Shown here piece by piece: positions 5,657 through 64,000 of a stretch of 64,000 bases of DNA. Source of the stretch: Scenedesmus sp. PABB004 (lineage: Eukaryota); assembly GCA_014905635.1 (NCBI GenBank), contig JABVCE010000030.1:310001-374000 (forward strand), read 5' to 3'. The translations under genes were made by a program, and so were the position numbers. Below the pieces are notes generated by a model. That model saw nothing but the letters and a program-made list of their open reading frames with translations, was not told the DNA's origin and did no database searches. Position 1 is the stretch's first letter. Every line of letters begins with the position of its first letter.

Positions 5657-8600
5657 TCACGCCCTGCTGCTCGCCATTGCAGACATGACCTCGGCCGCGC
5701 GCGAGTGCGGCAACAGGTCGGTCCTGCGGGCGCGCGGCGCACGGCGCGCCGGCGCGTGGGCAGCGCCGACGAGCGGCGGGGCGCGCAAGCAGCGCCAGCA
5801 GCAGCGCCCGCTCCCCGCAAGGGCGCCCCACTCACGCGGCGAGCCAGGCAAAGGCCTCCTCCGAGATGAGCGCGCGCGCTGCGGCCTGCAGGCCGCCCGC
5901 GGGCAGCTCTAGCGCGCCGCCGCCCGGCGCCTCCGGCGCCAGCAGCCGCAGCAGGCGCGGGAACGGCCGCGTGTAGCGCTGCGCGGCGCGTGGGCGTGGG
6001 CGCATGCTGAGGTCGTTCTGCATGACGCGCGCTGCACGCTGTGTGCTGCGCGGCGGGCTCACCAGGCCGCCCGCCACGCAGGTGGCGCAGATGGCGCTGT
6101 GCAGCTCGCTGTCGCGCGCCATGCACGCGTCACTGCAGTAGCACGCCGCACGGCACCTGGGGCAGCTGACCGCCTGTGGGTGTGCGGGCGCACGGGCGCG
6201 CGCTGCCGTCGGCGGCGACGGTGGCGGCGCGACCGCGGCCGGCAGCGCGAGCGGCAACCACAGCTGGCAGTGGCGGCAGCGCGCCGCCGGCTGCCCTGCG
6301 CTGCGCTCGCACCGCGCCTGGCGCCAGCGCGCCCGTGCAGGCGTCGCAGCTGGTGCTCCAGAGCATGGCCGCCTGGTGGCGCGCCCACCAGACGCCCGGG
6401 TCGCGCAGCGCCTCGAGCGGCGAGCGGGGGCCCAGCGCCGCCTCGCCGACGTCGGTCAGCAGCCCGCTGGGCTGGGCCTCGTCCTGCCGCACCGCCTGCG
6501 CGCAGCATGGCAGCGCCGGGCGGCGCAGCGTCGCCGCTGCGCGGCGCAGGCGCAGGCGCGCCGCGCGGGCGCAGCGCGCCGCACCTCGTTGCCCTCGCTG
6601 CCTGGGGCCTGCGGCGTGAGGTTCTGCATGTTGACCATGTGGCGGCGCACGTGTGTCGCCATGTCCTCCACGCGTCCGTGCAGCGCGCCGCCCTCGACAT
6701 GGATGCGCGCGCCCGCCGGTGCCAGCATGTCACGCGGCGGGCCGGCCACAGCCGCCATCCAGACCAGCTCCGCTGCGGACGGCTGCAGCTGGCGGGCCAG
6801 CTCTCGCCGCCCCGGTGGGGGCTCGCTGGCGGATGTGTCCGCCAGGACCTGGCTCTTCACAGACGCCAGCAGGGCAAGCGCCGCCTGCTCGCTGCGTGGC
6901 CGCCTGCCAAAATCTGGCATGCGCCGCAGCAGCGCGAGGCCTGGCAGCATGGGCGGCCCCTCGGCGCCGGGCGCCAGCTCCGGCGCGGGCGCAAAGCGCG
7001 CCGCGGCCGGCGGCAGCGCGCAGCCCAGGCTCGCGCCCGCGGGCACGCCGCTGAGCTGGCGCGCGGCGAAGCTGACCGCACGCAGCCTGCCGGCCAGGCG
7101 GCGGGCGCGCGGACGGCGCGCGGTGAGCAGCGGGCGGGCGGCGCGAGCCGGCGGCGACGCGTGTGGGTGGCCTGGTGCCAGCGCGCGAGCGGGCGGCGGC
7201 GGCAGCCTGCGCCGCGCCGCCCTGCCGCCCGCTCACCGCGCGTCATAGTCCATGTACAGCAGCTCCTCAGCCTCCACGCTGGCGGCCACGCTGGCGGCCT
7301 CGCTGGCCGCCTCGCTGGCCGGGCGCGGTGCCTGCTGCTGCGCGCCGGGCCCGGCGGCGCCGCGCGCCGCGGCGCGGCGCAGGCCGACGTGCCACCACAC
7401 GTGCCAGGCGGTCAGGCCGGCGCTGCGGTGCCGGAACCAGTCCAGCACGGGGCTCGCTGTGAGGGAGTCCATCAGCGCCTTGCCCACGGCCGGCCGGAAG
7501 CTGCTCGGGCAGAGGTGCGCGACCTCCGGCCCTGCCGCAACCTGGCAGTGCAGCGGGGACAGCGCCAGCAGCACCTGCCGCGCCAGCACGGTCGTGGCGG
7601 GGCTGTACGCCTGCAGCGGCGCGCGGGCGGCCGCGCAGGCGGGCGCGCGGGTTGGGCCGCGCTGCGGCCGCCGCCGCCGCCGCCGCCGCTGCCGCGCGAC
7701 CGCGTCAGGCCGACGCGCGCGCCAGCCTGACGCGGACAGCGCCAGCCTCGTCCGCGCCGGCGCACCTGCACGTAGGCGGCGTTGACCGCGCGCGCGTACT
7801 GCCGCACTCCCAAGCTGCGGTAGCGCGTGCTGCCAAAGTAGCGGACCATGCCGGTGCCGAGCTCCAGGTCGAGCAGGGCGTGCGCGTCGGGTGGGCTCCA
7901 CAGCGCGAGCGACGCGCTGTCCACGACCAGCTGCCACACCCTGTGCAGCGAGCGCGCCGCGGCGGTGAGCCCCCGCCCGGCAGCGGCGGCAGCGGCGCCG
8001 CCGCGCCGCCCCAGCGTGCGCGCGCGCGCGCACGCGGGGTCGGGGCAGTGCGGGCACGCTGCGAGGTGCTGCGCCAGGAAGGCCTGGCCCACGGGCGAGA
8101 CCTTGCCCAGCAGCTGCCACAGCAGGCGGCGGAGCATGAAGGGACTCTCCCACGGCACTGCCGCATCGGCTGGGCTGCGCCCGTCGCGCGCGCCGCCGCG
8201 CTCGCGCTCCGCGCGCCGCTCGTGCAGCTCCTGCTGCTCGCGCACGCAGAGCGGGCAGTCCCGGTGGTAGTCGTGCGCCCCGGCCGGCCACGCGCGCTGC
8301 CCCTGGCCGCCGTCGCCGCCGCCGCCGCCGGCTGCATCGGCCGAGCTGCTGCTGCCGCCGCTGCCGCGCCCGCCGTCGCGTGCCGCAGCCGCGGCCGCGG
8401 CCCGCCGGGCGAAGCGCCAGGGTCTGGCGCCGCGTGCTTGCCCGGCGCGGCGCCGCTCCTGGCGAGCTGCATGCGGTAGCCGCTCTCCCACCACGCGCGC
8501 GCGGCCTCCTGCTGCGCCTTGTACTCTGCCAGCCAGGCGGCATGCCACGCGCGCAGCGGTGCCAGCTGCGCGGCCACAGCGGCGGCCAGCTGCCTGCGAG

Positions 8601-20546: not shown

Positions 20547-21021
20547 CCGCCGCCGTCGGCCCGCGCGCCGACGAGGCCGTCGAGCTCGTCGAAAAACACG
20601 ACCGCCGGCGCGGCGGCGCGCGCGCGCGCAAACAGAGCCGCGACCGCGCGCTCGCTCTCGCCCACGTACGCCGAAATGAGCTCGCCGCCCTTGACCGACA
20701 GGAAGTTGAGCCCCGCGCTCGACGCGACGGCGCGCGCGAGCAGCGTCTTGCTGCAGCCGGGCGGGCCGAAGAGCAGCACGCCGCGCGGCGGCGCGGCGCC
20801 GAGGCGCGCGAGCGCGCCCGCGTGGGACTGCGGCCACAGCACCGCCTCCTGCAGGCGCTGCTTCACGTCCTGCAGGCCGCCGACGTCGTCCCAGCCGACC
20901 TGCGGCACCTCGACGCCCACCTCGCGCAGCGCGCTCGGCTTGACCAGCAGCCGCGCGGCGGCGACGTCGTCCCAGCACACGCGCAGGTCCGGCGGCTGCT
21001 GTTGTGACTGCTGCTGTGGTG

Positions 21022-21100
<79 letters not shown>

Positions 21101-23677
21101 CTGCTGCTCCTGCTCCTGCTGCTGCTGCTGCTCGCCCCCCGGCGGCGCCTGCGCCTGCGCCGGCCCGTGCTGCGCCTGCTGCGGCTGCCGCAGGCCCCGC
21201 ACGTGCCGCCGCAGCGCGCCGAGCGCCGCCTCGTTGACGAGCGCGGCGAGGTCGGCGCCGACAAAGCCGTGCGTGGTGGCCGCGAGCGAGCGCACCTGCG
21301 CGTCGCTCAGCGCGTGCGCCACGCCCGACAGCCTGCGGGCGGCGCACGCGGCGCACGCGCCGTCGCGCCGGACCCGTCGTGCCGACTGGGCGCTTGGCCC
21401 GCAGGCAAGCTGTCCTGCGCGCGTTCAGCTCCTTCGACCTGGCCGGCGCGCGCGCGCACCTGACGCGGAGAATGTCCTCCCGCGCCGCCGGGTCAGGCAC
21501 GCCGACCTCGAGCTCGCGCTCAAAGCGCCCCGGCCGCCGCAGCGCGGGGTCGAGCGCGGCGGGGCGGTTGGTCGCGCCGATCACGACCACGCGCCCGCCC
21601 GTGGCCGCCGACACGGCGCCGCCCGCGCGTCCGGCGCTGCCCAGGCCGTCCATGAGGGTCAACAGCTGCGTGAGCACGCGCGCCGCCGCCTCGCCCGCGG
21701 CCGCGCCGCCCGAGCCGCCGCCGGCGGCGGCGGCGTGCGCGCTCGCGCCGCCGTGGCCGGCCGCGTCGCGCGACGGCGCGAGCGCGTCGAGCTCGTCGAT
21801 GAACACAACGGCCGGGCTCAGTGCCTCGGCGGCCGCAAACACGCCGGCCAGGCCCGCCTCGCTCTCGCCTGCGCGGCGGCGCGTCAGGCAGCGCGTCGGG
21901 CGGCGCATCGGCGGCGCGGCCCGGCCGCACGCGGGCAGGGCAGGGCGCGGCGCGCGGCCCTGCTGCGAGGGCGGCGCAGCCCGGCCGCCGTCCGCCGGCC
22001 GCCAGCGGGACGACACGGGCGCGCACCATAGAACTCAGTCAGCACGTCTGGCCCGTTGAGCACCAGCAGCGCCGCGCCCGCCTCGACCGCGGCGGCGCGC
22101 GCGAGCGCCGTCTTGCCGCTGCCGGGCGGGCCGTGCAGCAGCAGCCCGCGCGGCGGGCGGAGCTTGTACCTGGCAAAGAGCTCGGGCACGCGCAGCGGCA
22201 GCAGCACCAGCTCGCGCAGCGCCGCGCTGTACGTCGCGATGCCACCTAGGCGGCCGTAGCCGCCCGCGCCGGACGACGCGGACGCACCTGCACCGCGCGA
22301 CGGCGGGCGGCGGGGTCGGCGGGCCGCGCCGCCGCGCGCCGCGGGCCGCGGCCGCGGTGGCGCGCGCCGCCCGCACACCTGCGCGCACCGCCCGCTCGGC
22401 GGCCTCCGCCGCCGCGTCCTGCGCGCTGCCGACCACCGCGGCCCGCGCCGCTGCGCGCGCGGCCGCGACGAGGCTCGCCAGGTCCTTTGCCGCCGAGCCC
22501 GCCGCCGCGCCCGCGACGCCCGCCGCGGCCGCCACCGCGTCGGCCGCGTCCGCCTCGGCCTGGCTGCCGGCGCCGCCGGGCGTGCCGGCTGCAGGGTCTT
22601 CGTCGCCCGGCATGCGCAGCCTCACTGCTGTTGCTGCTCCAATCAGCAGCGGCTGCTGCTGCAGCTCCGACTGCTCCTGCGCCGGCTCCGCCGCGGGGTG
22701 CAGCTGGAACAGCAGCTGCAGGCCCAGCACCGGCAGATACGCGAGGTTGCCTGGGCGGGGCGGCGGCGGGCGCGCGTCGGGCGCAGCCGGCGGCGGCGCG
22801 CGGCGGGCGCGGCCGGTCGAAGGCGCGCGTGCGGCGCGCGCGCGGTTGCCCCGGCCGCCGCCCCTCACCCGGCAGGCACGCGCGGCCCAGCAGCTGCCGG
22901 TGCGCCAGCTGCTGCAGCAGCTGCCGCTGGCGCGGCTGCGACCAGTCGACGCCGCCCTGCAGCAGCCGCAGCTGCCACGCCGCCGCCGCCGCCGCGTCCG
23001 CCTGCCGCCGGCCGCCGTCGCCGGCGGCGGGCGCGCCCCCCGCCTGGCTGTCCTTTCTGCTGGGCTTCTTGCCGCTGGACGCCGGCGACTTGGTGGGCGT
23101 GGTGTAGCCACCGCCGACGGGCCTGCCGGGCGTGCATGGCTCGCCGCCGCCGCCGCCGCCGTCTCGGATGTCGTCCGGCGTCAGCGGCAGCCCCTGCTCG
23201 CCGCCCACGCCCAGCACCAGCGACAGGCTCGCCGCCGCCGGCGGGGCCCCTGCGAGGCCGCGGGCGGCAGTGGCGCGCGCGGCGCGGCGTGAGCCTCGAG
23301 ACTGTTCGCTCAGCGGCCGGCCGGCGGCGGCGGCAGCCGATGCCGCGCGGCGGCGCACACCTGCGCCAGGCGGCCGGCTGAACAGCGCGAGGCAGCTGCC
23401 CGCCGCCGGCTGCGCGAGGCTGCCCCACGCGCCGGGGCTCAGCAGCGCCGCGCCGCGCTCCAGCTTGGCGCACGGCCACAGCGTCACTGGCACCACGCGG
23501 CGCCCCGGCTGCTGGTCGTCCAAGCCGCCGCCCGCGTCGCTGCCGTCGCCGCCCAGGCCCGCCCGGGCCGGCAGGTCGAGCAGCACCGCGGACGCCGCGT
23601 CCACGCCCGGCGCCGCGGCCGGCGCAAACCTGCAGGGGCTGGGCGTCGCCGGGAGGCCGCTGCCGGGCGTGCCGGGT

Positions 23678-26060: not shown

Positions 26061-29000
26061 ATGCGGGTGGCCCTGGGGGCCCTGCTGGTGGCCGCGGCCG
26101 TGACCGCTGGTGCGGGCGGAGGAGGGCCGCGCGCCCCCCGGCTCCGCACGCGCGCTGGCGGCCTGGCACCGCCGCGTGCAGCTCGGGGGGCTCGCGACGG
26201 ACGCGTCGCGCGCTGCGCCTCACGCGCCGCCTTTCCCCCCGCGCCGCCAGGCCTCGCTGACCAGGCCGCGGGCTGGAGCAGCTACCAAGTCGACAGCGTC
26301 GCAACCACGGGTGAGCAGCAGGGGGTGTGCGAGCTCCCGACATGGGACCACCCCGCCAGCTGCCAGCGCCTCGGTGCGGCGGGCGCACGTGCCGCGCCGC
26401 CGGGCGGGCAGCGGCGCCGACGGCCGCCGACCGCCCGCCCGGCCGCGCCGCGCCGCGCGCCGCGTGCCGCACGCCGCCGCCGGCGCAGGCGCCCTCAGCA
26501 CCGTCGCCCAGATCAGCCTCAGCGACGAGGCGCTGCCGCAGTATGGCCCGAGCTTCAGGCAGCTCGTGGTGGAGGCGACGCCCGAGACGGCGACGCGGCT
26601 GCGCGTGAAGATTCACCCCGTCGGCCTGCAGCGCTGGGAGGTGCCTGAGAGCATCGTGCCGCGGTGAGGGCTGGCTGGGGCCTGGCGCTGCAGGAGACCC
26701 GGGAGCCGCGGCCAGGCGGCGGGTGGCGGGCAGCAGGCCCCTGCGCGGCGCTCACGCGCCCGCCGCGCCCCCGCGCACAGGCCCGGCCCCGCGCCCGGTC
26801 TCACCGCCGACGCGCTGACGTACGAGCTGCGCGGCCTGGAGGAGGGCGCGCCGTTTGCGCTCGAGGTGCTGCGCCGGGACGGCGGCGCGGCGCTCTTTGA
26901 CACGACGGGCTACAGGTGCGGCCGCGCCGCGCCGGCCGCAACCGCGCGCTCTGGCCCCGACAGCAACATGTGCTGGCCGGCTCGGTCAGCAGCACGCGGC
27001 CAAGCGCTCCCGCGCCGACAGTGCGCCAGCCATCCAGTTGAGCCAGTTTGAAAGCAAAGCATAGACGAGCTGCAGTCGACCTTGTGTTCGCCGCGCTGCA
27101 GGTTCCTGTTCAAGGACCAGTACATCGAGCTCACCACGGCGGTGCCGGCCGACGCGGACCTGTACGGCCTCGGCGAGGTCACGCTGCCCAGCGGCGTGCG
27201 CCTGCCGCGCGGCGGCGACACCGTCATAACGCTCTGGGCGCGCGACATGAGCTGCGCGAACGAGCACGCCAACCTCTACGGCAGCCACCCCTTCTACCTC
27301 CAGACCGCACCTGATGGGGCGAGCCACGGCGTGCTGCTGCTCAACAGCAACGGCATGGACGTCCTGCTCGGCCGCGACGCGCTGACCTACAAGTGAGCGC
27401 GTGGCCGCACCGGCGGCGGCGCGCCGCCCGCGCGGCCGCCGGCGGCGGCGCCGCCGGCGACCAGCCGGCCTCCACCGCCCGCCCGCCGCGGGGCCCTCAC
27501 CCGCGCGCCGCCCCTCCCGTGCGCTGCGCTCGCAACAACCAGGGTGATTGGAGGCCTGGTGGACCTCTACTTCTTCATGGGGCCCTCGCCCGAGGAGGTC
27601 ATCCGGCAGTACCACGAGGCGCGCGCTGGGGCCGCCACCGCAGCCGCAGCCGCAGCCGCAGCCGCAGCCGCAGCCGCAGCCGCAGCCGCAGCCGCAGCCG
27701 CAGCCGCAGCCGCAGCCGCAGCCGCAGCCGCAGCCGCAGCCGCAGCCGCAGCCGCAGCCGCAGCCGCAGCCGCAGCCGCAGCCGCAGCCGCAGCCGCAGC
27801 CGCAGCCGCAGCCGCAGCCGCAGCCGCAGCCGCAGCCGCAGCCGCACTGCCGTGCAGACGCAGCCGCGCCGGCGAGCCCCCCCCCCCCCCCCCGCCGCCG
27901 CGCGCGCGCGCGCAGGTGATCGGCGCGCCCGCGCTGCCGCCGTACTGGAGCCTGGGCCTGCACCAGAGCCGCTGGGGCTACCCCAACCTCGCCGCGCTGG
28001 AGGGCGTGGTGGCCAACTACAGCGCCGCGGGGCTGCCGCTCGAGGTGATCTGGTCAGACATCGACTACATGCACTCCCGCTACAGGCGAGCCCCGCGCGC
28101 TGCCGGGCGGCGGCGGCGCCGGTGCCCCACCCCTGCCGCCAGGGCGCGGCCACCTGCCGCGGCGGCGCCCGCCCACGCGCCCCCGCCGCGGCTCCGCCGG
28201 CCCTCCTCCCCTCTGCCGCAGGAACGCCGAGTTTGACCCGCACCGCTTCCCCGTGCCCGCGATGTCGGCGTTTGTCGGCCGCCTGCACGCCGACGGGCAG
28301 CACTGGGTCCCGATCATCGACGCCGGCGTCGCGGCGGCGCCAGGGTTCAAGACCTACGAGGAGGGCAGCCGCGCGGGGCTGTACCTCCGGGACCACACCG
28401 GGGAGCGCGACTACGTCGGCCAGGCGCGGCGGGCGCACCTCAGCGCGCGCGGCGCGCAGCGACCCGCGGCGCTGGGAGGGGAGGGGCCGGCGCGCCAAGG
28501 GCTTGCCTGGCGGCCGCGCGTGCCTCAACGTCCACACCCCCGGCCGCCGCCGCGCCGCCGCGCAGGTGTGGCCGGGCCCCTCCACCTTCCCTGACTACCT
28601 CACCAGCCCTAACGTCGCGCCATGGCTGGCGGAGAAGATGCGCCGCTTCCACGCCCAGGCGCGCGCGGCTGGCAGGGAGGGGGCAGGCGCTGTGCCGAGG
28701 CGGGTGCGGCGCCCGCGCGGGGCGCGCGCGCTGGCTCAGCTCTGGCGGCGCTCGCTCCCGCCCCGGCGCGGTCCCACTGCTGCAGGCCGAGTGGAGCGGG
28801 CTGTGGCTGGACATGAACGAGGCCGCCAACTTCTGCTCCGGCACCAACTGCCGCCCCGACCACGGCAACGCGACCAACATGTACTGTGCGTGGCGCGCGT
28901 GCTGCCTCTGGGTCTCACTCTAGCTCTCGCCTCGTCCCTTCCCCCCTCCCTTTCAGTGCCGCGCTGGCCTCCCTGCCGGCGCCGCGCGCGCCGCCCGGCC

Positions 29001-53179: not shown

Positions 53180-55111
53180 GTCTCGCAGTCGGGCGGGGCC
53201 CGCAGTGTGCACGCGCGCGCGGCGTGCCCCCCCCCGCACCCCGCCGCTCTGCGCCCCGCCGCCCCCTGCCGCCGCGGGCGCGCCTGTCCGAGGGAGATGA
53301 TGGCGATCGGGGTCATCCACAGCAGGGCAATGATGAAACCTCCCTGGGGCGGGGCGCCACCACCGCGGCGGCGCGGCGCCGCGCGTGCGCGGGGCTGAGC
53401 GAGCAGCACGCGCACGTCCGCCCTTGTGCCGCGCCCGCGCGCGCCCCGTGCGCCCCGCCGCCCTGCGCCCCGGCGCGGCGCGCTGCAGGCCGCGGCGCGC
53501 TGCGTGGCCCGAGGGGGGGGGGGTCGCGGCCCGCGCGCCGCGCGGGCGCCGCACCAGGATGTCGTCGATGTTGTGGCGGTGGTCGGTGTAGCGGCTGACG
53601 CCGACCCACCAAGCGATGCTGAGGACGGTGCACGCCCACACGATGAACAGCCCCTGCGCGACCTCTGTGAGCAGCCGCCACGCGGCGCCGCGGCGCGCGA
53701 GGTCCCACATGCCGCCCATGTAGTTGTACCCGCCGCGCAGGTACAGCGCGTGCACAAAGTAAAAGACCGTGTACCTGTGCGGCGCGCGGGCGGCGGCGCG
53801 CGGGGGGCGTGGCCGGGCGCGCAACGCGCGGCGCGGCGCATGCTGGTGCGGGCGCGGGGCGCGGCCGCACCAGCAGACGCTGAGCGTGTTGGAGCTGTGG
53901 CCGCTCGGGAAGGACTTGCGCCCGTCCGCGACGGCGGCCTTGTCGCTGCTGGTGCAGTCGGTGTTGGCCACGACCGCGTCGGGCGCCATGGTCTCGCCTT
54001 GCAGGCTCGGGCGGCAGCGCTCCATGAAGTCGGGCCTGCGCGGCGGCGGCGGCGGCGGCCGCTGTGCATCAGCCGGGCTGCGCCGCGCGCCGGGCCGGGC
54101 CAGGCAGCGCGGCCGCGGCGGCGCGGCGCGGCGCCGCGCCTGAAGCGGCTCGCGATGGGCTTGGTTGCCTCGGTGATGCTGAGCACGACGGCAAAGCCAA
54201 TGATCGCCCAGAACAGGACGTGCAGGAAGGCCTGGATGCTCGCCGTCAGGCTCTGCTTGCGCCACATGACGGCAAACCTGATGTGTGCAGGGGGGGGAGG
54301 CGCGGCGGCGCGGCGCGGTTGAGCGCCCTCCGGCGCGGCGCGGCGGCGCGGCGCGGGCCGCGGCGCGGGCCGGGGCCCCCCCACTCACTCGATCACCGCG
54401 GCGGTGATGATGAGGGCGACGAAGGGGTAGGCTGGCGGGCGCGGCCGGCGTCCGCGGGGCAGGGCGGGCGGCGCGTGGGCCGAGGCGAGGCCGTCAGGCG
54501 CGCAGCCAGCGAGCGAGCGAGCCAACTTTGGGCGGCGGGGGCGCCGCGCGGCGCCCCACCTGTCGCGGCGGCCATGGAGACGGTGTCCTTGGTCTGGTAG
54601 GGCAGCCGCACGGCCGCATCAAACAGGCGCAGCGGGCGGTGGTCCGGCTCCGTGCTGCGGCGCGCGGGCGCAGGCGTGGCGGCCGCGGCGCGGTCAGCCG
54701 CGGTGGCGGTGGCGGGGGGCCTTGACGCAGCTCAGAAGCAAGCAGCGAAGCGGAGCAGCTGCGCCGTCAACACCAACACCGAGCCCGCCGCAGCAGCGAC
54801 TGCGGCGGCACCCGGGTGCCGCCGGCGCGTGCGGGCGCCCAGCTCCGCCCTGCACTGCCCGGTTGCTTTCTGAGCCCCCCGGCGCACAAGTAGTGCGACA
54901 CGCCGACGATGATGCCGGCGATCAGCAGCACCAGCAGGCCGCCCCATGTCTGGTACTTGAACACGCGGCCCCACCGCACGCTGCGCCAGGTCGAGAGGTG
55001 CGCGGGCGAGCGGCGGGGTCCCACGGACGAGTGGTCAGACGCCGCGTCGATGTCGGGCGCCTTGCTGCCGGCGCTCCGCTCCGGCGCTGCTGCTGCCGCC
55101 GCCGGTGCCAT
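53019..55111 (-). CDS. PAP2-family lipid phosphate phosphatase; about 8 exons
   Basis: Catalytic motifs KPIASRFR|PDF (C1), RKSFPSGHSS (C2) and SRYTDHRHNIDDIL|GG (C3); several TM segments. Confidence 0.9.
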
Positions 55112-55499
55112 CTGCTGCTGCACGCGTCCGTGAGCCTCTGCGGGCGCGCCAAGGCCTGCCGGGTGCTCGAGGGGTGGACGGCGGGAGTGTTGGCGCGTGG
55201 TGGCGGGGCGGCTTGGCGCCAGCCGGCGGGGCAGCTGGCCGGGCGCCGCGCCGACTGAACGGTCAGCGCGTCAGCCCGAACGGCGGCCTTTTGCTGACTG
55301 CGTGGCCTGAAACGGTGTGGTCTGCTGTTCGGCTCGGCCCAGGCTCCCGGAAGCTCCTGGCCAGCGAGCCTGCCGGGCGCGCGCGAGCCAGCGCGCGGCA
55401 GTCGCGTGCTCGTTTGCCAACCGGCGCGCGCCCCGCTGCGGCCAACTTTCTCAACTGCGCAGCCTGCGCGTGCGTGTTACGCCGCGTGCGGAGCCGCCG
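54900..55499. repeat. Left arm of a ~600-bp inverted duplication (native PAP2 upstream region + most of exon 1)
   Basis: Reverse complement of 59814-60410 apart from a few substitutions and a 3-bp CAG indel. Confidence 0.95.
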
Positions 55500-55604
55500 A
55501 GAGTGCACGCGGTCGACCGCAGCCCCAGCACGCAGGTGCCTCCAGGTGCCGTCACCTCGCACACCCGCGCGGCGCGCCCTCAAGGGCGGCCCGGCGGAGT
55601 GAGC

Positions 55605-58357
55605 TCACTCCGCCGTGCCCGCCCCCGCCGCCGCCGCGGCCAGCGCGCGGCAGACCGGCTTGTGCGCGCGCCACGCGGCCGCCTGGCAGGCGCGGCTGCA
55701 AAAGCGCGCGGGCGCGGCCGACTTGACACAGCCACTGCACACGCATGACCGACCGCCCACCGCCGCCAGCTCGCTGCGCGCGCCGGCCAGCGCAGCGCAG
55801 CGCGGGTTGTTGCAACACGCGCGCAGCGGCAGCGCGGCGCACACCGCGCCGCACAGCTCCTCAGCCTGCGCGGCCAGCGCGGGGCCGCGCTCCTGCAGCG
55901 TGCTGGCGCGGGCGACTGCGGAGGCAGAGACGTCAGCCAGCTGCGCGGCCAGCTCTGCCGCCGCCGTGTCCAGCTGCTCCTGCTGCGCCAGCAGGCGCTC
56001 CAGGCCCGCGCGCGAGGCGTCCGCCGGCAGCGGCCCCAGCGCGCGCAGGCGTGGGCCCAGCAGCACCGCCGTCTCGCGCAGACTCCCCAGCACGACTGCC
56101 GCAGCCGCCACCATCTCTCCAGGCATGTCAGCGCCGGCGGAGATGCTCGCGCCAGTCATCGCACGCCCCGCCAGCGCCGCGCTGAGCAGCTGCCCAATCA
56201 CTGTCAGGCCGCGCGCCACCAGCACCCCCCACAGCGCGGGCGGCTCGTACGCGAGCTGGCCGCTTGCGGCCGCCACAGCTGCCAGCTGTGCGCGCGCCAC
56301 CGCGTCGCCAATGGCGCAGCCGGCTCGCACAGCCGCCAGGCACTCGCTCGCCAACTCGCGCAGCTCCTCAAGCGGGTCGGCCTCGGCTGCTGCAAGCGGC
56401 GCGCCGGCCGCCACACACTTGAGCGCCGTGAGCAGGCAGGCAAACACCTCACGCTGCAGCAGCAGGCCCGCGCCGCCGCCGGTTGTCAGCGCCGGCGAGG
56501 CTGCCAAGCTGGGCCCAAACCGCCCGATGGTGCCGCACAGTGTGCGGGCTGTGCTCAGGACCAACTGCGGAATGGCCCTGCCCATGAAGCTCCTGGCGGA
56601 CGCCTCCAGCAGCCGGCACAGGGTCGAGGGGTCCTGCCGCGCAAACACCGCCAGCGCCGCGTCGGCTGCGTGACGTGGACGCGGCGGTGGCGGCAGCAGC
56701 GTGAGCAAGCGCAGACAGGCTGGGCCAGTGCGCGGCGGCAGCTGTCAAAGCGAACTGCCGCAAGCGCGCCGCGCAGCCTGGGGCCCGTTGCTCAGCAACA
56801 GAAGCGAGCCGCAGCACAGGAGGGCGACCTGAGCAGTTTCGGCGTCAACCGGCTGCGCCCACGCCCCACGCTGCCCCGCCGCAGCTGACCCGCTGCCCGT
56901 GCTGCCGCCAGCATCCGGCGCCAGCAGCACGGTGGCGGTGGGCCGGGCGAGCGGCAGGAACGCGCGCACCACTGCCGCCGCCGCCTGGTCAGCGCCGTGC
57001 GCCCCAGTCCATGAGGCAGGCCGGAGGCAGCGCAGGATGGTGCCGGCGCACGCCGCGCCGGCAGCCAGCACGTGGGGCGCCGGCTGCAGCGCCGCCAGCT
57101 CCAGCGCCGCCTCCGCCGCTGCGGCCGCCAGCCCCACGCCGCCGACCGCTGGCAGGCCACTGATGCCGGGGCCGGTGCTGGCGCTGATGCAGCTGGGCAG
57201 AGGCGAGACAGCAAACATGCGGGTGACTGCATAGATGCTGGACATCAGCAGCCCCTCGTCGTGCTGGGCCGGGGGCACCGCGGAGGCGTCCAGCTCCAGC
57301 GCGCGCGGCAGCGCGGTGTGCGCCGCCGACACTGCGGCGGCGCCACCACCACCACTGCCGCCGCCGACGCCTGCCGGCCGGCCGCGCTGCGCCTCGTGGC
57401 TGTGCGCCGCGCGCAGGGCGAGGTTGGCCAGCAGCAGCTGCTGCACCGCGGGGTCAGACAGCAGCGCACGCTCCGCCTCGGCGCTCACGCGGCCGTGCTG
57501 GTAGGCCAGCACCAGGCTCTGAGCCGTCCACGAGGCTGTTGTGCGGGCCAGCGAAAATGGAGTCTGCACGAGCGCCGCGACTTCAGGGCTGCCGGCGGCG
57601 TCCGCACGCCAGGCGCCGGCGCGGCGCAGCACGGCGAGCGCCAGGCGCGCGGCCGGCTGCGCCAGCGGCAGCAGCGGGCCGTCCAGCTGGCCCTCCTGCG
57701 GCCAGACATTGCGCACAGCGCGTGCCACCAACAGCGGCGCTCCCGCTACCACACAGTCGCACACCACGTCGAGAGCCACGTCGCTGCCCTGCTGCTGCCG
57801 CCGCCGCCGCTGCCGCCGCTGCTGCTGCTGCTGCTGCTGCCGCTGCTGCTGCTGCTGGGCCTCCAGCTCAGCAGCGATGCCAGCGCACGCCAGAGCCAGC
57901 GGCGGGAGGATGCCTGCGGGCAGCGGCCTGGTCAGGGACGGGCGCACAGCAGCTGCAGGCGCAGCCCGCCGCCCGCCGGCAGCCGCTCACCCGCGCGCTC
58001 GACCTCGGCCGCCAGCTCCGCGGGCGCGCCAAAGACTGCACGAATCTCAATGCTCCGCGTCAGCACGTCCGACAGGGCATGCAGCGTTGAAGCAAAGCCC
58101 TCCGCCCGCGTCGCCGGCGCCGCCAGCAGCGCCAGCGCGCGCGCCACGGCCTGCGCGAGCCGCTGCTGCACGCCGGCGGCCAGCAGCGCGGTCAGGTCGG
58201 CGCAGGGCGAGCCGCTGGCCTCCGCGCGGTCAACCAGGCCGGCGAAATAGGCACGCAGCGGCTCCGCGGCGGCGCCCTCCGCCTCTTGCGCGTCGATGCT
58301 GCTCGCGCGCGCGCAGCGGCCCAGCCAGCCCGCCAGCGCGGCGGTCTCGGGGCACAT
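55605..58357 (-). CDS. Ala/Leu-rich helical protein with a C-terminal MYND zinc finger (type expanded in chlorophytes); 3 long exons
   Basis: C-terminus CAALPLRACCNNPRCAALAGARSELAAVGGRSCVCSGC...ARFCSRACQAAAWRAHKPVCRAL; internal polyQ. The start codon is uncertain. Confidence 0.75.
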
Positions 58358-58591
58358 GCTGCGTGGATCGCAGCCCAGCGGTGCGGGCGGCAGCTGGCCG
58401 GGGCCTGCGCGGCCGGGCGGGGCAGCTGCGGCAGGTGCAGTCTCGAGCTCCAGAAGAACCGCCGCCCGCACCTGCGCCCTGCGTCCAGTTTGCTCCCCGC
58501 CGCACGTTCACCCCGCCGCGATAGATCCCAGCCTCCCCAGGCTCCTCGCGTGCTCTCCTGAGACCGCAGTTTCGCCGCAGCAGCAGCGACC

Positions 58592-59807
58592 ATGAGCGGC
58601 CGGGCGCCCGGCGAGAAGCGCGTGCGGGCCCCCAGCCGGCGCTACGCCGGCGAGGAGTGGCAGACCGGGGACTCGCAGGCACGCAGAGCCGGGCGCTGCG
58701 CGCTGCTGGTGCAGCCGGCGCAGCGCGGCAGCGGCAGCAGCGGCGCGCCGCGCCCGCGCCCGAGCGGCCCGCGCCGGCCCGTGCCAGGCGGGCGAAGGCG
58801 AGGTGGACGATGACTACGAGCCGCCACCGTGCAAGAAGCGCGCCGCCAAGCCGCGCGGCGCGGCGGCAGCGCCCGCGCCCGCCGCGCTGGCCCCCGCGCC
58901 GCCCGCGCCCGCGCCCGTGCGGCGCACGCCCGCGGCGCGCCGCCGGCAGCTGGCGGCGGCGCTTGCGGCGCGCGGGCTCGAGCTGCGCTCCGACTCTGCG
59001 CTGTGCGAGGAGTTCATCCGGCACGGCGGGGGCATTGGCCAACTCGAGGCGCGCATGCGCAGCGCGCGGCGCGGGACAGGCGCGCGGCGGCCCGGCCTCA
59101 CCCTGTCCCCGCCGCGGCGCCGCCGTGCACGTGGCAGTACGTGGTGAAGGTGATGGACCAGATGCGCTTCTACCACGCCCACACGGACTACGAGGACTTC
59201 CGCGAGGAGGCGAGCCCTCGCGGCCGCCACGTGGCGGCCCGTGCACGGGCCGCGGGGCGCGCGGCCGCGGGGCGCGGGTGGCCGCCGCGGGGCGCGCGGC
59301 GCCGCGGGCCAGCAGCGCGCGCGCGCGCAGGGGGGTGTGGCGCGGGCCTCGCCCGCGCGCGCTGATCGGGGCGCCGCGACCGCGCGCCGCGCGTCGGCAG
59401 GAGTTTCACGCCATGCGGCGCGAGTGCAACTACGTCGACTCCATCGAGGTCTCCAGCGTGGCGCAGGACACCGCGCTCCGCGACTGGGCCAGCAGGCGCG
59501 CCGCCGCTGGCTCTGCCCCCGGCGCCGGCGCGGCCGCCCTGCTCGGCAGCTGCAGCTGCAGATGGCGGCCAGCCGTTGCTGCGACGCCTCGGGCGCCGAC
59601 CGCGCTGCCGCGCGGGCCCGCAGGTTCCCGAGCCGCCAGGCGGCGGCCGCCGCGCCCGAGCTGCCCGAGAGCCTGCGCGACGCCGTGCTCGCCCTCCCGT
59701 GGCCGTGCAACATCGAGCGGCCGGCGCCCTACGCGAACGACAGCGACGACGAGGACTCCCGCGACCGCTGGGGCGGCGGCGGGCGGCCCTGGTACGATCG
59801 CTACTGA
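58592..59807 (+). CDS. Uncharacterised, probably nuclear protein with an 'RRxQLxxALxARGLELRSDSxLC...M.FY..HT.Y' domain; 5 exons, all four introns GC-AG
   Basis: Exons 58592-58678, 58788-59048, 59138-59209, 59401-59495 and 59624-59807 splice in frame; NLS-like PPPCKKRAAKPR. Confidence 0.75.
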
Positions 59808-59813
59808 GCCGCG

Positions 59814-60410
59814 CGGCGGCTCCGCACACGGCGTTTGGCGCACGCGCAGGCTGCGCAGTTGAGAAAGTTGGCCGCAGCGGGGCGCGCACCGGTTGGCAAA
59901 CGAGCACGCGACTGCCGCGCGCTGGCTCGCGCGTGCCCGGCAGGCTCGCTGGCCAGGAGCTTCCGGGAGCCTGGGCCGAGCCGAACAGCAGACCACACCG
60001 TTTCAGGCCACGCAGTCAGCAAAAGGCCGCCGTTCGGGCTGACGCGCTGACCGTTCAGTCGGCGCGGCGCCCGGCCAGCTGCCCCGCCGGCTGGCGCCAA
60101 GCCGCCCCGCCACCACGCGCCAACACTCCCGCCGTCCACCCCTCGAGCACCCGGCAGGCCTTGGCGCGCCCGCAGAGGCTCACGGACGCGTGCAGCAGAT
60201 GGCACCGGCGGCGGCAGCAGCAGCGCCGGAGCGGAGCGCCGGCAGCAAGGCGCCCGACATCGACGCGGCGTCTGACCACTCGTCCGTGGGACCCCGCCGC
60301 TCGCCCGCGCACCTCTCGACCTGGCGCAGCGTGCGGTGGGGCCGCGTGTTCAAGTACCAGACATGGGGCGGCCTGCTGGTGCTGCTGATCGCCGGCATCA
60401 TCGTCGGCGT
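59814..60410 (+). pseudogene. Right arm of the inverted duplication: orphan copy of the PAP2 promoter and truncated exon 1
   Basis: Encodes the same [22 protein letters not shown]...LLVLLIAGIIVGV as PAP2, then homology stops abruptly at 60410. Confidence 0.88.
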
Positions 60411-60510
60411 CCACAAGAGTTGCCAACTGCCGGCCGCCCCACGCGCCGCCGCCGCCTGGGCCTCGACCAGCCGCAAACCCCAGCCTGCCAGCTGCCCACC
60501 CCGCGCGCCG

Positions 60511-61955
60511 TCAGCACAGGGTGAACTCGGCGAGCTGCGCCGTCGCGTCGCGCAGCCAGCCGATGGGGCGCTGGCTCGCGAAGAACCGCAGGCCCTCGAC
60601 CAGGCCCGTCACGTCGCGCGGCGCGAGCTCGGGCGCCTGCCGCCGCACGACGGCCACGAGCGCCGCGAGCCAGGGCTCCGGCGGCGCGACGCCAACGAAG
60701 AGCAGCCCGCGCACGACGTCCAGCAGCTGCGGGACGCTCCAGTGCTCCAGGCCGGGCGCGGTCGCCGCGAAGAACGCGTCCAGCAGGGCCCGCGGCGGCG
60801 GCAGCAGCAGCAGCAGCATCGTGTGCGCGAGGCGGTGCCCCAAGCCGCCCGCGAGCAGCAGCGCGTGCCCCGGCTGCTCCGGCAGCTCCGGCAGGTCCTG
60901 CGCCTGCTGCTGCTGCTGCTGCTGCTCGAGCTGCTGCTGCCGCCGCTGCTGCTCCTCGTCCGCGAGCTGGCGGCCGAGGCAGTCGAGCACCTTGGCCCGG
61001 AAGGCCGGACTCTGCAGCTGGTCGTCGTCGACGTTGACGTTGGCCCACCTGCGGCGCCGGCGGCGGCAGAGCGCGCGCTCGGGGCGGCGCAGCGACCGCG
61101 GACGGCAGCCGAGTCGCGCGCCGGTGCTCGCAGCGCTTTGCTGGGTGCTCACCGCATCGCGCATGCGAGGGCGATGGCAAAGTCAGCGAGCTGCTCCAGC
61201 GCCGCCGGCTCGGCGCCGCCCGGCAGCGGCGGCTCGGGCTGCTCCCCCGGCTGCGGGGTCGGCTGCCGGCGCTGCGGCCGCAGCAGCTCGCGCTGCGTGC
61301 CCGCCGCCCACGCCGCCGAAACGTCGCCGAGCCATGCCGACCAGCTCGCGGGGTCGGCGGCGGCGAGCGGCCGATTCCAGCGTGGCGTGCCCCAACCGAT
61401 AGCCATAGGCTGCACCACGGGGATTGGCAGCCCCGCCAGGGCCGCCACGATGCGCGCCAGCGCGCGCGGCGATGCGCCGCCGTCGGCGCAGCGCGCGGCG
61501 ATGCGCGCCGGCGATGCGCCGCCGCCGCCGCCGTCGGCGCAGCGCGCGGCGACCTCCGCCCGCAGCGTGAGCAGCCAGGAGGTGTGGGGCAGCTCCTCGG
61601 CGATGTACGCCAGCTGCTCCAGCTCCCGCTGCGCCCCGCCGCAGCCGCCCGCGCGCTCGAGCGCGGCGGCCGCGCGAGAGGTGCAGGCGACGGCGTCGAG
61701 CGTCGCGGCGAGCTGCTCCAGGGACATGCCCGGGAGGGCGCGCTCGAGCTGGAGCATGTGTTCCGCGAACTCCGCGCGCGAGAGCAGCTCCGCGCCGGGC
61801 GGGCCCCACGCGTCCGGCGGCGGCGGCGGCGTGCTGCTGCTGCCGGCCGCGAGCGCGCCGCGCCTGCTGCAGCGCCTGGCCCGGCCCGCACGCGCTGGTG
61901 CTGCTCTACTGCGCGACGGACCGGGCGCCGTGCGCCCGGACAGGCGCGCCAGCAT
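60511..61955 (-). CDS. Organelle-targeted helical-repeat protein (OPR/RAP-like); 2 exons
   Basis: Arg/Ala/Ser-rich transit-like N-terminus; SPRALARIVAALAGL, PPPRALLDAFF, GVAPPEPWLAAL and LAPRDVTGLV resemble octotricopeptide repeats. Confidence 0.6.
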
Positions 61956-62125
61956 AGGGGAGGCCGCGCGGAATCTGCTGGCCGCAGCAACAGCTGTAAC
62001 GGGCGTCTCCAGGCGTGGCCGCGCGAGGGAAGTGTGCTTCCCGGACCGCACAAGCTCACGGGACCGTCACCGCCGCAAGCAGGCACCGCGGCGCGGCGGC
62101 GCACGCCGCAAACCGCGTCAGCCCG

Positions 62126-64000
62126 TCACCGCGCTGGCCGGCGCTGCGCGAGCGTCGCCGCCGCCACGCCCGCCGCGAGCGCCGCCAGGCCCAGCAGCAC
62201 GCCACGGTCCGCCACGCCGCCGGCGCCGCCGAGCTGCACGGGCCCGAGCGCGACGGGCGCCGACCACGCGCCCGGCGCGCCGCTGCCGCCCCCGCCGCCG
62301 CCTCTGCCGCTGCCGCCCGCGCCGCTGCCCGGGCTGCCTTGGCCCGCCGCGGCCGTGGCGCCCGCCGCACCGCCGCCCGCGGCGGGCGCCCCGTCGTCGG
62401 GCGGGCCGGCCGCGCAGGCGCGCAGGCGCGGCGTCGGCCGCACCGGCGAGACGCTCCCGAAAAAGTCTGTCACGCGCACCGAATCGAGCGGGCGGCGATA
62501 GTTGCGCGCGTCGCAGTGAAACGTCGAGTCGAGCACCTCGTGCCTGCGCGGCGGGCGCGCGGCGCGGGCGCGGCGGACTCGGCGCCCGCCCGCGCCGCAA
62601 CCGCGCCGTCCGCCGCGCTGCGCCTCGCAGCGCCCCGCCGCGCCGCGCGGCCGCCGCTTGTGGCGCGCACGCGGCCCCTGCGCGCGCTCGTGCCTGTAGA
62701 TGGCCATGAGGTCGGCGAGCGTCGCGTTGGAGTGGCTGTCGACGCGCTCGAAAAAGTCGAGGCTGGACCAGGTGAAGCGATCGATGAGCGACAGGCCCAC
62801 GTCGGCGTCAGTCACGTGGCTGTAGCTGCTCTCGCCCTTGAGGCTGCTCGCCATCGCGAGCACGTTGGGCGAGCTGCGCGCGCGCGGCGTGCGTGGCGCG
62901 CGTGGCGTGCGCGGGCGTCAGCGGCTGCGGCGCGCGGCCGCGCGAGCGGCGGGCGCGTCGCCGGCGCGGCGCACGTGATTCGCGAGTAGAGCGTGGCGGC
63001 CTGGCACGTCTCCACGACCAGCAGCAGCTCCCGGTAGCGCCCCTTCTCGTGCATCTGCTGCACCGCGTCCGCGACGTCCTGCAAGCGCGCGCGCGGCGGC
63101 CGCGTGCGCGGCGGCGGTCGCGCGCGCGTGGGCGCCGCGACGCCCACGGCGGGCGGCGCCGGCGGCGGGGGCGCCGACGGACCTGGGCCATGAGCTCTGC
63201 GGTGTCCTGAAACTTCATGAACTCGTTGCCGCCGTGACCGCTGATGTACACCTGCGCCCGGCGCGTTGGTGGGCGGCGCGGCGCGGCGCGGCGCGCGTGG
63301 CGGACCGCGCGGGCGCGCGGGGCGGCGTCCGCGGCGCACCAGCACGTTGCTGCCGCGGTCCGAGAGCATGCGCTTCGGCCGCGGCACCGCGGGGTCGTGC
63401 CGGCCTGCGGCGGCGCGCGCGGGGCGGGGCTCGGACGGCGCGCGCGAGCGCCCGCGGCGCCGCCCGCCGCCCGCCGTCCGCCGCCGCCCGCCACCGCGCC
63501 GCGCCCGCCTGCCGCCCGCGCCCGCGGCCGCCGCCCGCGCTGTGTTCCGCCGCCGCGTGTCGCACCGGTGAGGACGCGGATGAAGTTTTCGACCGTCACC
63601 TCCGCGCCGCGGTAGTCGACCTCCACGGTGGACCCATACACGTTGAGCGCGTGGCCCGCGTCGTTGAAGACGGCGCCCGGGTGCGCGTTGCGCGCGTTGC
63701 ACGCGACCTCCTCCGCGAGCATGAGCACGATGTGGCTGTCGGGGATGCCCAGGCGCTTCACTGCGGCCCCCGCGGGGGCTGGGGCTCGGCGGCCCGCAGC
63801 GTCGCGCGCGGCGCGCGCGCGAGCGACTGGCGCACCCGTGCGGTAGAAGGAGAGCGCGTTGGCGATGTGACGGTAGTTGTACCAGTACTTGGACGTCGCG
63901 ACGAGCACCGCCCAGTTGCTCGTGTGCGGCGCGGGCTCCGGCGCGTGCGGCGCCGCTGCTGGCGCTGCTGCGGCCGCGGCGGCCGCGAGCGCGAGCAGCG
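62126..64000 (-). CDS. GPI8: GPI-anchor transamidase catalytic subunit (C13 peptidase); the 5' end lies beyond the window
   Basis: [69 protein letters not shown]; catalytic YISGHGG and VETCQA; ESSYSH; C-terminal TM segment. Confidence 0.95.

Follow-up and report, generated by a model that had tools for sequence, protein, structure and literature searches.

Staggered breaks are a published mechanism of chromosomal inversion, described for inversions in Drosophila (Ranz et al. 2007, PLoS Biol, PMC1885836). In the part of that report drawn on here, inverted duplications of non-repetitive sequence were found at the breakpoints of 17 of 29 Drosophila inversions, with only one of the two breakpoints duplicated in 12 inversions, and the duplications had a median size of 321 bp, ranging from 46 bp to ~1.9 kb. 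Here, a comparable structure is described from the green alga Scenedesmus sp. PABB004, located in a 64,000-nt stretch of contig JABVCE010000030.1 (assembly GCA_014905635.1, positions 310,001 to 374,000), referred to below as the window and numbered from its first letter. The structure consists of two arms of about 600 nt in inverted orientation, one of which is the 5' end of a gene for a PAP2 (lipid phosphate phosphatase-type) protein, bracketing a divergent pair of genes. It looks like a non-mobile local inverted duplication, the scar of chromosome breakage and repair. More tentatively, with chances put at a little under even, the arms may have arisen as a by-product when a staggered break led to a micro-inversion of 4.3 kb.

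The two arms are reverse complements of each other, with 590 of 600 aligned columns identical in a global alignment (Table 1). The repeat search of the window recovered them as a block of 219 nt that is 100% complementary (54900-55118 with 60192-60410) and an overlapping block of 411 nt that is 96% complementary (55089-55499 with 59814-60224). The match is far beyond chance, since a whole-window search (seed 16, minimum 90 nt) yielded no inverted repeat besides this PAP2 arm pair in the whole 64 kb. Each arm comprises 388 nt upstream of the PAP2 ATG and the first 212 coding bases, corresponding to the first 70 codons. The coding part (54900-55111 vs 60199-60410) is 100% identical between the arms, and the differences consist of a 3-bp CTG indel at 55112-55114, directly 5' of the ATG, three substitutions (55379, 55425 and 55485), and a 4-nt block at 55475-55478, located 22-25 nt from the inner arm end. 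Between the arms, which are ~4.3 kb apart, lie a MYND-finger gene and a small gene encoding the peptide LELRSDSALC, and to the right a third gene on the minus strand has its stop codon (60511-60513) 100 nt from the right arm. An earlier note on this DNA had already reported the arms and their near-identity, which the search and alignment bear out, as well as the distances of the MYND stop (55605-55607) from the left arm, 105 nt, and of the small-gene stop (59805-59807) from the right arm, 6 nt. The spacing of the two start codons, at 58357 for the MYND gene and 58592 for the small gene, likewise stands, the codons being 234 nt apart.

Open reading frames alone mean little in this window because its high GC content yields 393 stop-to-stop frames of at least 110 aa, many of them overlapping on both strands. 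The GC content by codon position (third-position GC, GC3, up to 1.00) tells the coding frame and strand much better. The left arm was correctly recognised in the earlier note as the in-place 5' end of PAP2, as the arm is continuous with the rest of the gene in both sequence and frames. The PAP2 domain named there is matched by Pfam PF01569 in an unspliced frame (E 3.7e-06) at 27.1 bits, just under the cutoff of 27.2, and the motifs K..R/PDF, SFPSGHSS and SRYTDHRHNIDD can be read in the translations (here and below, a slash marks a joint). The ATG is at 55111-55109 (-), with its copy in the right arm at 60199-60201 (+), and the frame 54767-55270 (-) carries the exon-1 peptide, including LLIAGIIVGV. 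Read by eye, intron 1 probably falls within about 54655-54887, where the best candidate donor for exon 1, TT/GTGCGC at 54888/54887, is in phase with a putative acceptor at 54655/54654 before the conserved ...TEPDHRPLRLFDAAVRLPY block. If this splice reading is correct, the duplication ends 12 nt before the end of exon 1, and the right copy has no donor. In the same region, one contig from a related population (X1, see below; depth 2.9) has 7 other letters in place of the 140 nt at 54725-54864, which fits a length polymorphism in PAP2 intron 1.

The right arm points into the 3' end of the right-hand minus-strand gene, and codon-position GC shows no plus-strand coding periodicity beyond 60410. 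An open frame of 839 codons that starts from this arm (60190-62709) was considered as a gene and rejected: periodicity is lost at 60410, from where the coding signal is on the opposite strand, and the frame is therefore a product of GC content. For annotation purposes, the right arm is to be marked as a partial PAP2 pseudo-copy and not as the start of a gene.

The enclosed segment resembles its surroundings. GC content is 0.755-0.784 in the segment and 0.753-0.818 across all 32 two-kb bins of the window, whose genes are split and intron-bearing with ordinary eukaryotic domains (Pfam, 393 frames). Both enclosed genes are whole and intron-bearing, with codon-position bias and the local composition, and neither has a paralogue elsewhere in the 64-kb window. 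The MYND finger was confirmed by Pfam, and the extent of the gene proposed in the earlier note by a full-length homologue of 690 residues, P0001 (KAF8060367.1, Scenedesmus sp. PABB004), which shows 52-62% amino-acid identity over three blocks from 58357 to the finger at 55647 (residues 1-126, 125-462 and 503-676 on 58357-57989, 57917-56829 and 56225-55647, respectively). The best homologues are from the green algae Scenedesmus sp. PABB004 and Tetradesmus obliquus, and the C-terminal exon has 789 relatives at E<=1e-3, 136 at E<=1e-10 and none at E<=1e-30. Judged from these comparisons, the MYND gene is a member of a large, fast-evolving green-algal family, yet an inherited resident gene. Local GC content, codon-position bias, introns and the full-length MYND homologue thus mark the enclosed genes as native, and the description of the segment as an accessory cassette, made in the earlier note, is not supported, given a composition equal to that of the surroundings and no paralogues in the window.

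Independent DNA bears on whether the structure is real. Two freshwater metagenome runs (shares 0.07 and 0.05) contain low-depth short contigs of close relatives, and the evidence taken from them consists of 16 of 337 placed pieces, the longest being 313 nt and thus shorter than the arms. Most of the contig joints among these, with sides of 20-24 nt within GC-rich repeats, were treated as spurious. The X1 pieces differ from the window at 4/275, 15/313, 6/177, 8/200 and 5/204 letters, about 1.5-5%, and X1 is therefore another population and not the same assembly. In X1, record 6 (206 nt, 59758-59957) spans the inner junction of the right arm with 56 and 144 nt on either side, and record 8 (205 nt, 60370-60573) spans its outer junction with 41 and 163 nt. 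An assembly artefact, that is, a chimeric or fold-back join, must be considered, as inverted duplications can stem from chimeric long reads and the left-arm junctions are bridged by none of the 16 of 337 pieces. However, both right-arm junctions are present in two contigs of a different population, 2-4% diverged, the arms differ from each other at 10 of 600 columns (one indel, three substitutions and the 4-nt block), and the left arm is needed to complete PAP2, which together make an artefact improbable.

Both junctions of the right arm are present in X1, and the duplication therefore seems older than the separation of the window and X1 populations. The X1 base at position 59828 is that of the left arm in the window; this difference between the arms thus arose later on the window lineage. 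With ~5 difference events in 600 nt, the arms are about as similar to each other as the populations are (1.5-5%), or more so, which is suggestive at best of homogenisation of the arms by gene conversion.

How a staggered break could have produced this arrangement can be outlined as follows. The ancestral order would have been PAP2 (-) preceded by the small gene (-) on the same strand, followed by the MYND gene (+), which would have converged with the right-hand gene (-). One staggered break would have extended over the 600 nt of the arm (A), from 6 nt past the small-gene stop into PAP2 exon 1, while a second, near-blunt break would have fallen in the middle of the ~205-nt convergent gap between the MYND and right-hand genes, leaving 105 nt on one side and 100 nt on the other. 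The overhangs would then have been filled in and the 4.3-kb divergent gene pair rejoined in reverse, leaving A on one side of the pair and A', the copy in inverted orientation, on the other. In this scheme, 54899/54900 and 59813/59814 would represent old contiguity, and only 55499/55500 and 60410/60411 would be new joints. With A duplicated, neither the promoter nor the first exon would be lost to PAP2, and the small gene would retain its native 3' flank; the latter would explain why the small-gene stop lies only 6 nt from an arm. The MYND and right-hand genes would each retain ~100 nt of 3' flank. The inversion would thus be gene-sparing, with no gene losing more than the 3' flank beyond about 100 nt, and A' would be a by-product in the form of an orphan promoter and a truncated first exon facing the 3' end of the right-hand gene. 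The earlier note had named a template-switch or staggered-break scar as one of its options; this kind of explanation fits best, albeit as an inversion or local duplication of resident genes and not as the insertion of a cassette.

Several features of the locus agree with the Drosophila breakpoints (PMC1885836), as far as the portion of that work used here describes them. The arms are single-copy host sequence within the window, with one of them still in its original context, and a duplication of 600 bp lies inside the reported range of 46 bp to ~1.9 kb. In both cases, ancestrally unique, often genic sequence is found inverted at the two ends of a segment, one copy being in context, while the other holds only part of a gene and is probably non-functional. 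The differences are these: the segment here measures 4.3 kb with two genes in a green alga, whereas the Drosophila inversions are of chromosomal scale; the arms are ~98% identical compared with a mean of ~88% in D. yakuba; and the inversion of the segment described here is a proposed one.

Some observations weigh against the staggered-break inversion or leave it level with other routes. Among the DNA of relatives, the C-terminal exon of the MYND gene met only 2 short loci in metagenome contigs, covering the finger only; in the genome-contig search, the last exon of the small gene gave 588 pattern matches with 0 relatives, and a 30-nt pattern from the arm was matched nowhere. No outgroup gene order emerged from these searches. 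A templated inverted insertion would end in the very same structure, and junction microhomology and hairpin potential are at chance level, with no signature favouring inversion or insertion. Moreover, the Drosophila cases are far larger, and applying their mechanism to a 4.3-kb algal segment would be an extrapolation. Finally, recombination between the arms can flip the segment, so that the present orientation does not fix its history. A hairpin across the reconstructed ancestral joint (ACTCT..AGAGT) was also considered and dropped, its similarity being weaker than that of the flank pair discussed below.

Replication template switching and break repair are known to give rise to templated insertions and inverted duplications, as in fork stalling and template switching/microhomology-mediated break-induced replication (FoSTeS/MMBIR) and filler DNA. 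In such a scenario, the present gene order would be ancestral; a break 6 nt past the small-gene stop would have been repaired by copying ~600 nt in reverse from the PAP2 5' region 4.3 kb away, either in the course of synthesis-dependent repair or when replication switched templates, as in FoSTeS/MMBIR or filler DNA, and the copy would then have been joined to the other end. In a variant, the same insertion would have entered the inverted ancestral order and been followed by a recombination flip between the arms. This route is possible, if less probable than the inversion. It yields exactly the observed structure from a template close by in cis, and 4 of the 5 inter-arm differences fall in the inner 121 nt (55379-55485), which could reflect error-prone synthesis where copying began. 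As in the known systems, nearby sequence would have been copied in reverse into a break without mobile machinery, with mutations clustering near one junction, although filler insertions are typically shorter and junction microhomology, the usual hallmark of such events, cannot be read from the present sequence. Immediately outside the arms, the bases differ at either end, and microhomology within the shared part would be visible only in the pre-insertion sequence. The insertion would also have replaced the entire 3' flank of the small gene beyond 6 nt, yet the gene looks well adapted, with GC3 up to 1.00 right to the stop, and the convergent genes would ancestrally have been separated by only 106 nt from stop to stop. 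An RNA template could be imagined as well: the PAP2 pre-mRNA, beginning where transcription starts and reaching close to the donor of intron 1, would have been copied into a break, and the arm would equal this 5' stretch. The outer arm end is indeed 12 nt before the likely donor at 54888/54887, and the inner end could be a transcription start. Still, the arm does not end at the best donor, a 5' UTR of 388 nt would leave 105 nt for both the 3' end of the upstream gene and a core promoter, and there is no poly(A) or other mark of a retro-copy, making this the least probable route of all.

Pack-MULEs are Mutator-like elements that carry host gene fragments, and the earlier note had proposed a Pack-MULE-like composite mobile element with captured host sequence as terminal inverted repeats and the MYND and small genes as cargo. 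The locus shares with Pack-MULEs long terminal inverted repeats, host-derived DNA and an interior without transposase; in addition, the MYND family is large and expanded (the 789 relatives above) and a second MYND finger is found in the window. In Pack-MULEs, however, the terminal repeats are element-family sequence with the host fragments between them, flanked by a target duplication of 9-11 bp. Here, the repeats are host sequence still serving PAP2, so that the element would contain part of its host gene, the cargo consists of two whole, native genes and not of captured fragments, and neither arms nor cargo have a second copy in the 64-kb window. The lack of a transposase and of a clean target-site duplication, both noted earlier, was borne out: none of the 393 window frames matches a transposase, reverse transcriptase (RT) or integrase in Pfam, and no identical k-mer (k = 2-11) abuts the arms. 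The weak resemblance between the flanks left of 54900 and right of 60410, also pointed out in that note, is at chance level, as the 20-nt flanks align locally with a best score of 7, and 4757 of 20000 random pairs of 20-mers drawn from the window (24%) score as high or higher. A mobile element is thus very unlikely, and the suggestion of a route by which MYND genes spread is not supported; the finding says nothing on such spread, and the second finger (5835-6455) is no close paralogue. Even taken together, an artefact, a mobile element and an RNA-templated copy are left with only a small share of the probability, and some of it is assigned to none of the explanations considered.

Table 1. Features at the inverted repeat, in window positions.
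Feature	Position	Strand	Basis and remarks
PAP2 gene (lipid phosphate phosphatase-type), 5' part and catalytic exons	53500..55111	-	Pfam PF01569 and motifs in translations
Left arm (A)	54900..55499	-	Most of PAP2 exon 1 and 388 nt upstream; repeat search, alignment, minus-strand codon periodicity at 54880-54999
Left arm, upstream part	55112-55499	-	Putative 5' UTR/promoter, possibly also 3' flank of the upstream gene
Spacer, left arm to MYND stop	55500..55604	.	105 nt; 55499/55500 would be a new joint if inversion, old contiguity if insertion
MYND-finger gene	55605..58357	-	At least 3 coding blocks, finger at C-terminus; Pfam PF01753 E 2e-05
Gap between divergent start codons	58358..58591	.	234 nt; presumed shared bidirectional promoter
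Small multi-exon gene with peptide LELRSDSALC	58592..59807	+	At least 4 coding blocks, GC3 0.93-1.00
Spacer, small-gene stop to right arm	59808..59813	.	6 nt; 59813/59814 would be old contiguity if inversion, a new joint if insertion; bridged by X1 record 6
Right arm (A')	59814..60410	+	Inverted copy of A; upstream region 59814-60198; ATG 60199-60201 intact; 70 codons identical to PAP2 exon 1
Spacer, right arm to right-hand-gene stop	60411..60510	.	100 nt; 60410/60411 is a new joint whichever model applies; spanned by X1 record 8
Right-hand gene, 3' part	60511..61840	-	Very strong minus-strand codon periodicity, GC3 0.93-1.00 over 60520-61120 and 61540-61840

The genes at the locus show some further features. 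The second MYND finger of the window, at 5835-6455 (-), is matched by Pfam PF01753 (E 3.1e-05) and is separated from the first by ~50 kb; the two are not recent paralogues, since tblastn of the enclosed MYND exons against it found no similarity at E<=1e-3. Two X1 contigs match the first exon and promoter of the enclosed MYND gene (58127-58381) at only ~86% (22/156 and 32/227 differences), which suggests that this metagenome also contains a paralogue or a second relative at a greater distance. In the homologue KAF8060367.1, the deposited C-terminus (residues ~630-690, compared with 55647-55850) seems to be out of the MYND-finger register, and a separate match of 24 residues at 83% identity is found in another register; this may be a gene-model slip in the record. 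The small gene has no Pfam match at E<=0.01, with DUF7317 (E 0.075) as the only one at E<=10, no homologous proteins were found with residues 70-151 as query at near lengths or with residues 112-153 at near and at longer lengths, and an Atlas search gave a best score of 0.81, below the useful range. These results weakly suggest that the small gene is an orphan, the queries being single short exons, unspliced. A likely GC-AG intron at 59049-59137 (GAG/GCGCGC ... GGCAG/TAC) separates its LELRSDSALC...GQLE and YVVKVMDQMRFYHAHTDY blocks and is the only frame-consistent intron that can be drawn between them; with the genome at 78% GC, introns of the GC-AG type may be common in it. For the right-hand gene, no Pfam family was found over 60511..61840, and the OPR-like label given to it in the earlier note is thus unconfirmed.

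Elsewhere in the window, the Pfam domains include an isoamylase C-terminus, LRR, SAD/SRA, AAA, HAD, GH31, protein kinase, VTC/SPX, CBS and peptidase C13 in addition to PAP2 and MYND, and Rfam and tRNA scans found nothing. Two microsatellites, both long, clean and of in-frame length, were observed: (CCGCAG) x 39.5 with 95% matches at 27638-27871, between the N-terminal and TIM-barrel Pfam matches of GH31, and (GCT) x 46 with 88% matches at 20995-21132, inside frames with AAA ATPase matches. The poly(A) signal TGTAA occurs 6 times in the window over both strands, about the chance expectation, and 3' ends cannot be placed from it.

Recombination between long inverted repeats of near-identical sequence, separated by a few kb, can invert the intervening segment, as in plastids and the 2-micron flip-flop. 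Recurrent inversions mediated by inverted repeats are also the subject of PMC3961182. The arms described here are likewise two long, near-identical inverted repeats a few kb apart, and they would be a substrate for recurrent flipping of the two-gene block. In contrast to the systems with recurrent inversions, both orientations are not evidenced here, and the contigs considered (up to 313 nt) are shorter than the arms. It could be speculated that the MYND and small-gene pair is indeed a recurrently flipping segment, with both orientations coexisting in populations, and that at the same time the orphan copy of the PAP2 promoter is active, driving antisense transcription into the 3' end of the right-hand gene; taken jointly, these proposals are unlikely, more so than either the inversion or the templated insertion. 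If true, the orphan copy would serve as a novel regulatory input or be the origin of a new gene whose membrane anchor comes from PAP2.

The locus adds a further example to a kind of rearrangement scar that is already known, and a literature search for natural nuclear green-algal cases of breakpoint-duplicating inversion found none. A complete spare promoter and first exon set against a neighbouring gene would provide material from which antisense regulation or shuffled exons could arise. Should the inversion reading be correct, the locus would offer a clean, small, non-animal example of a gene-sparing rearrangement achieved through breakpoint duplication.

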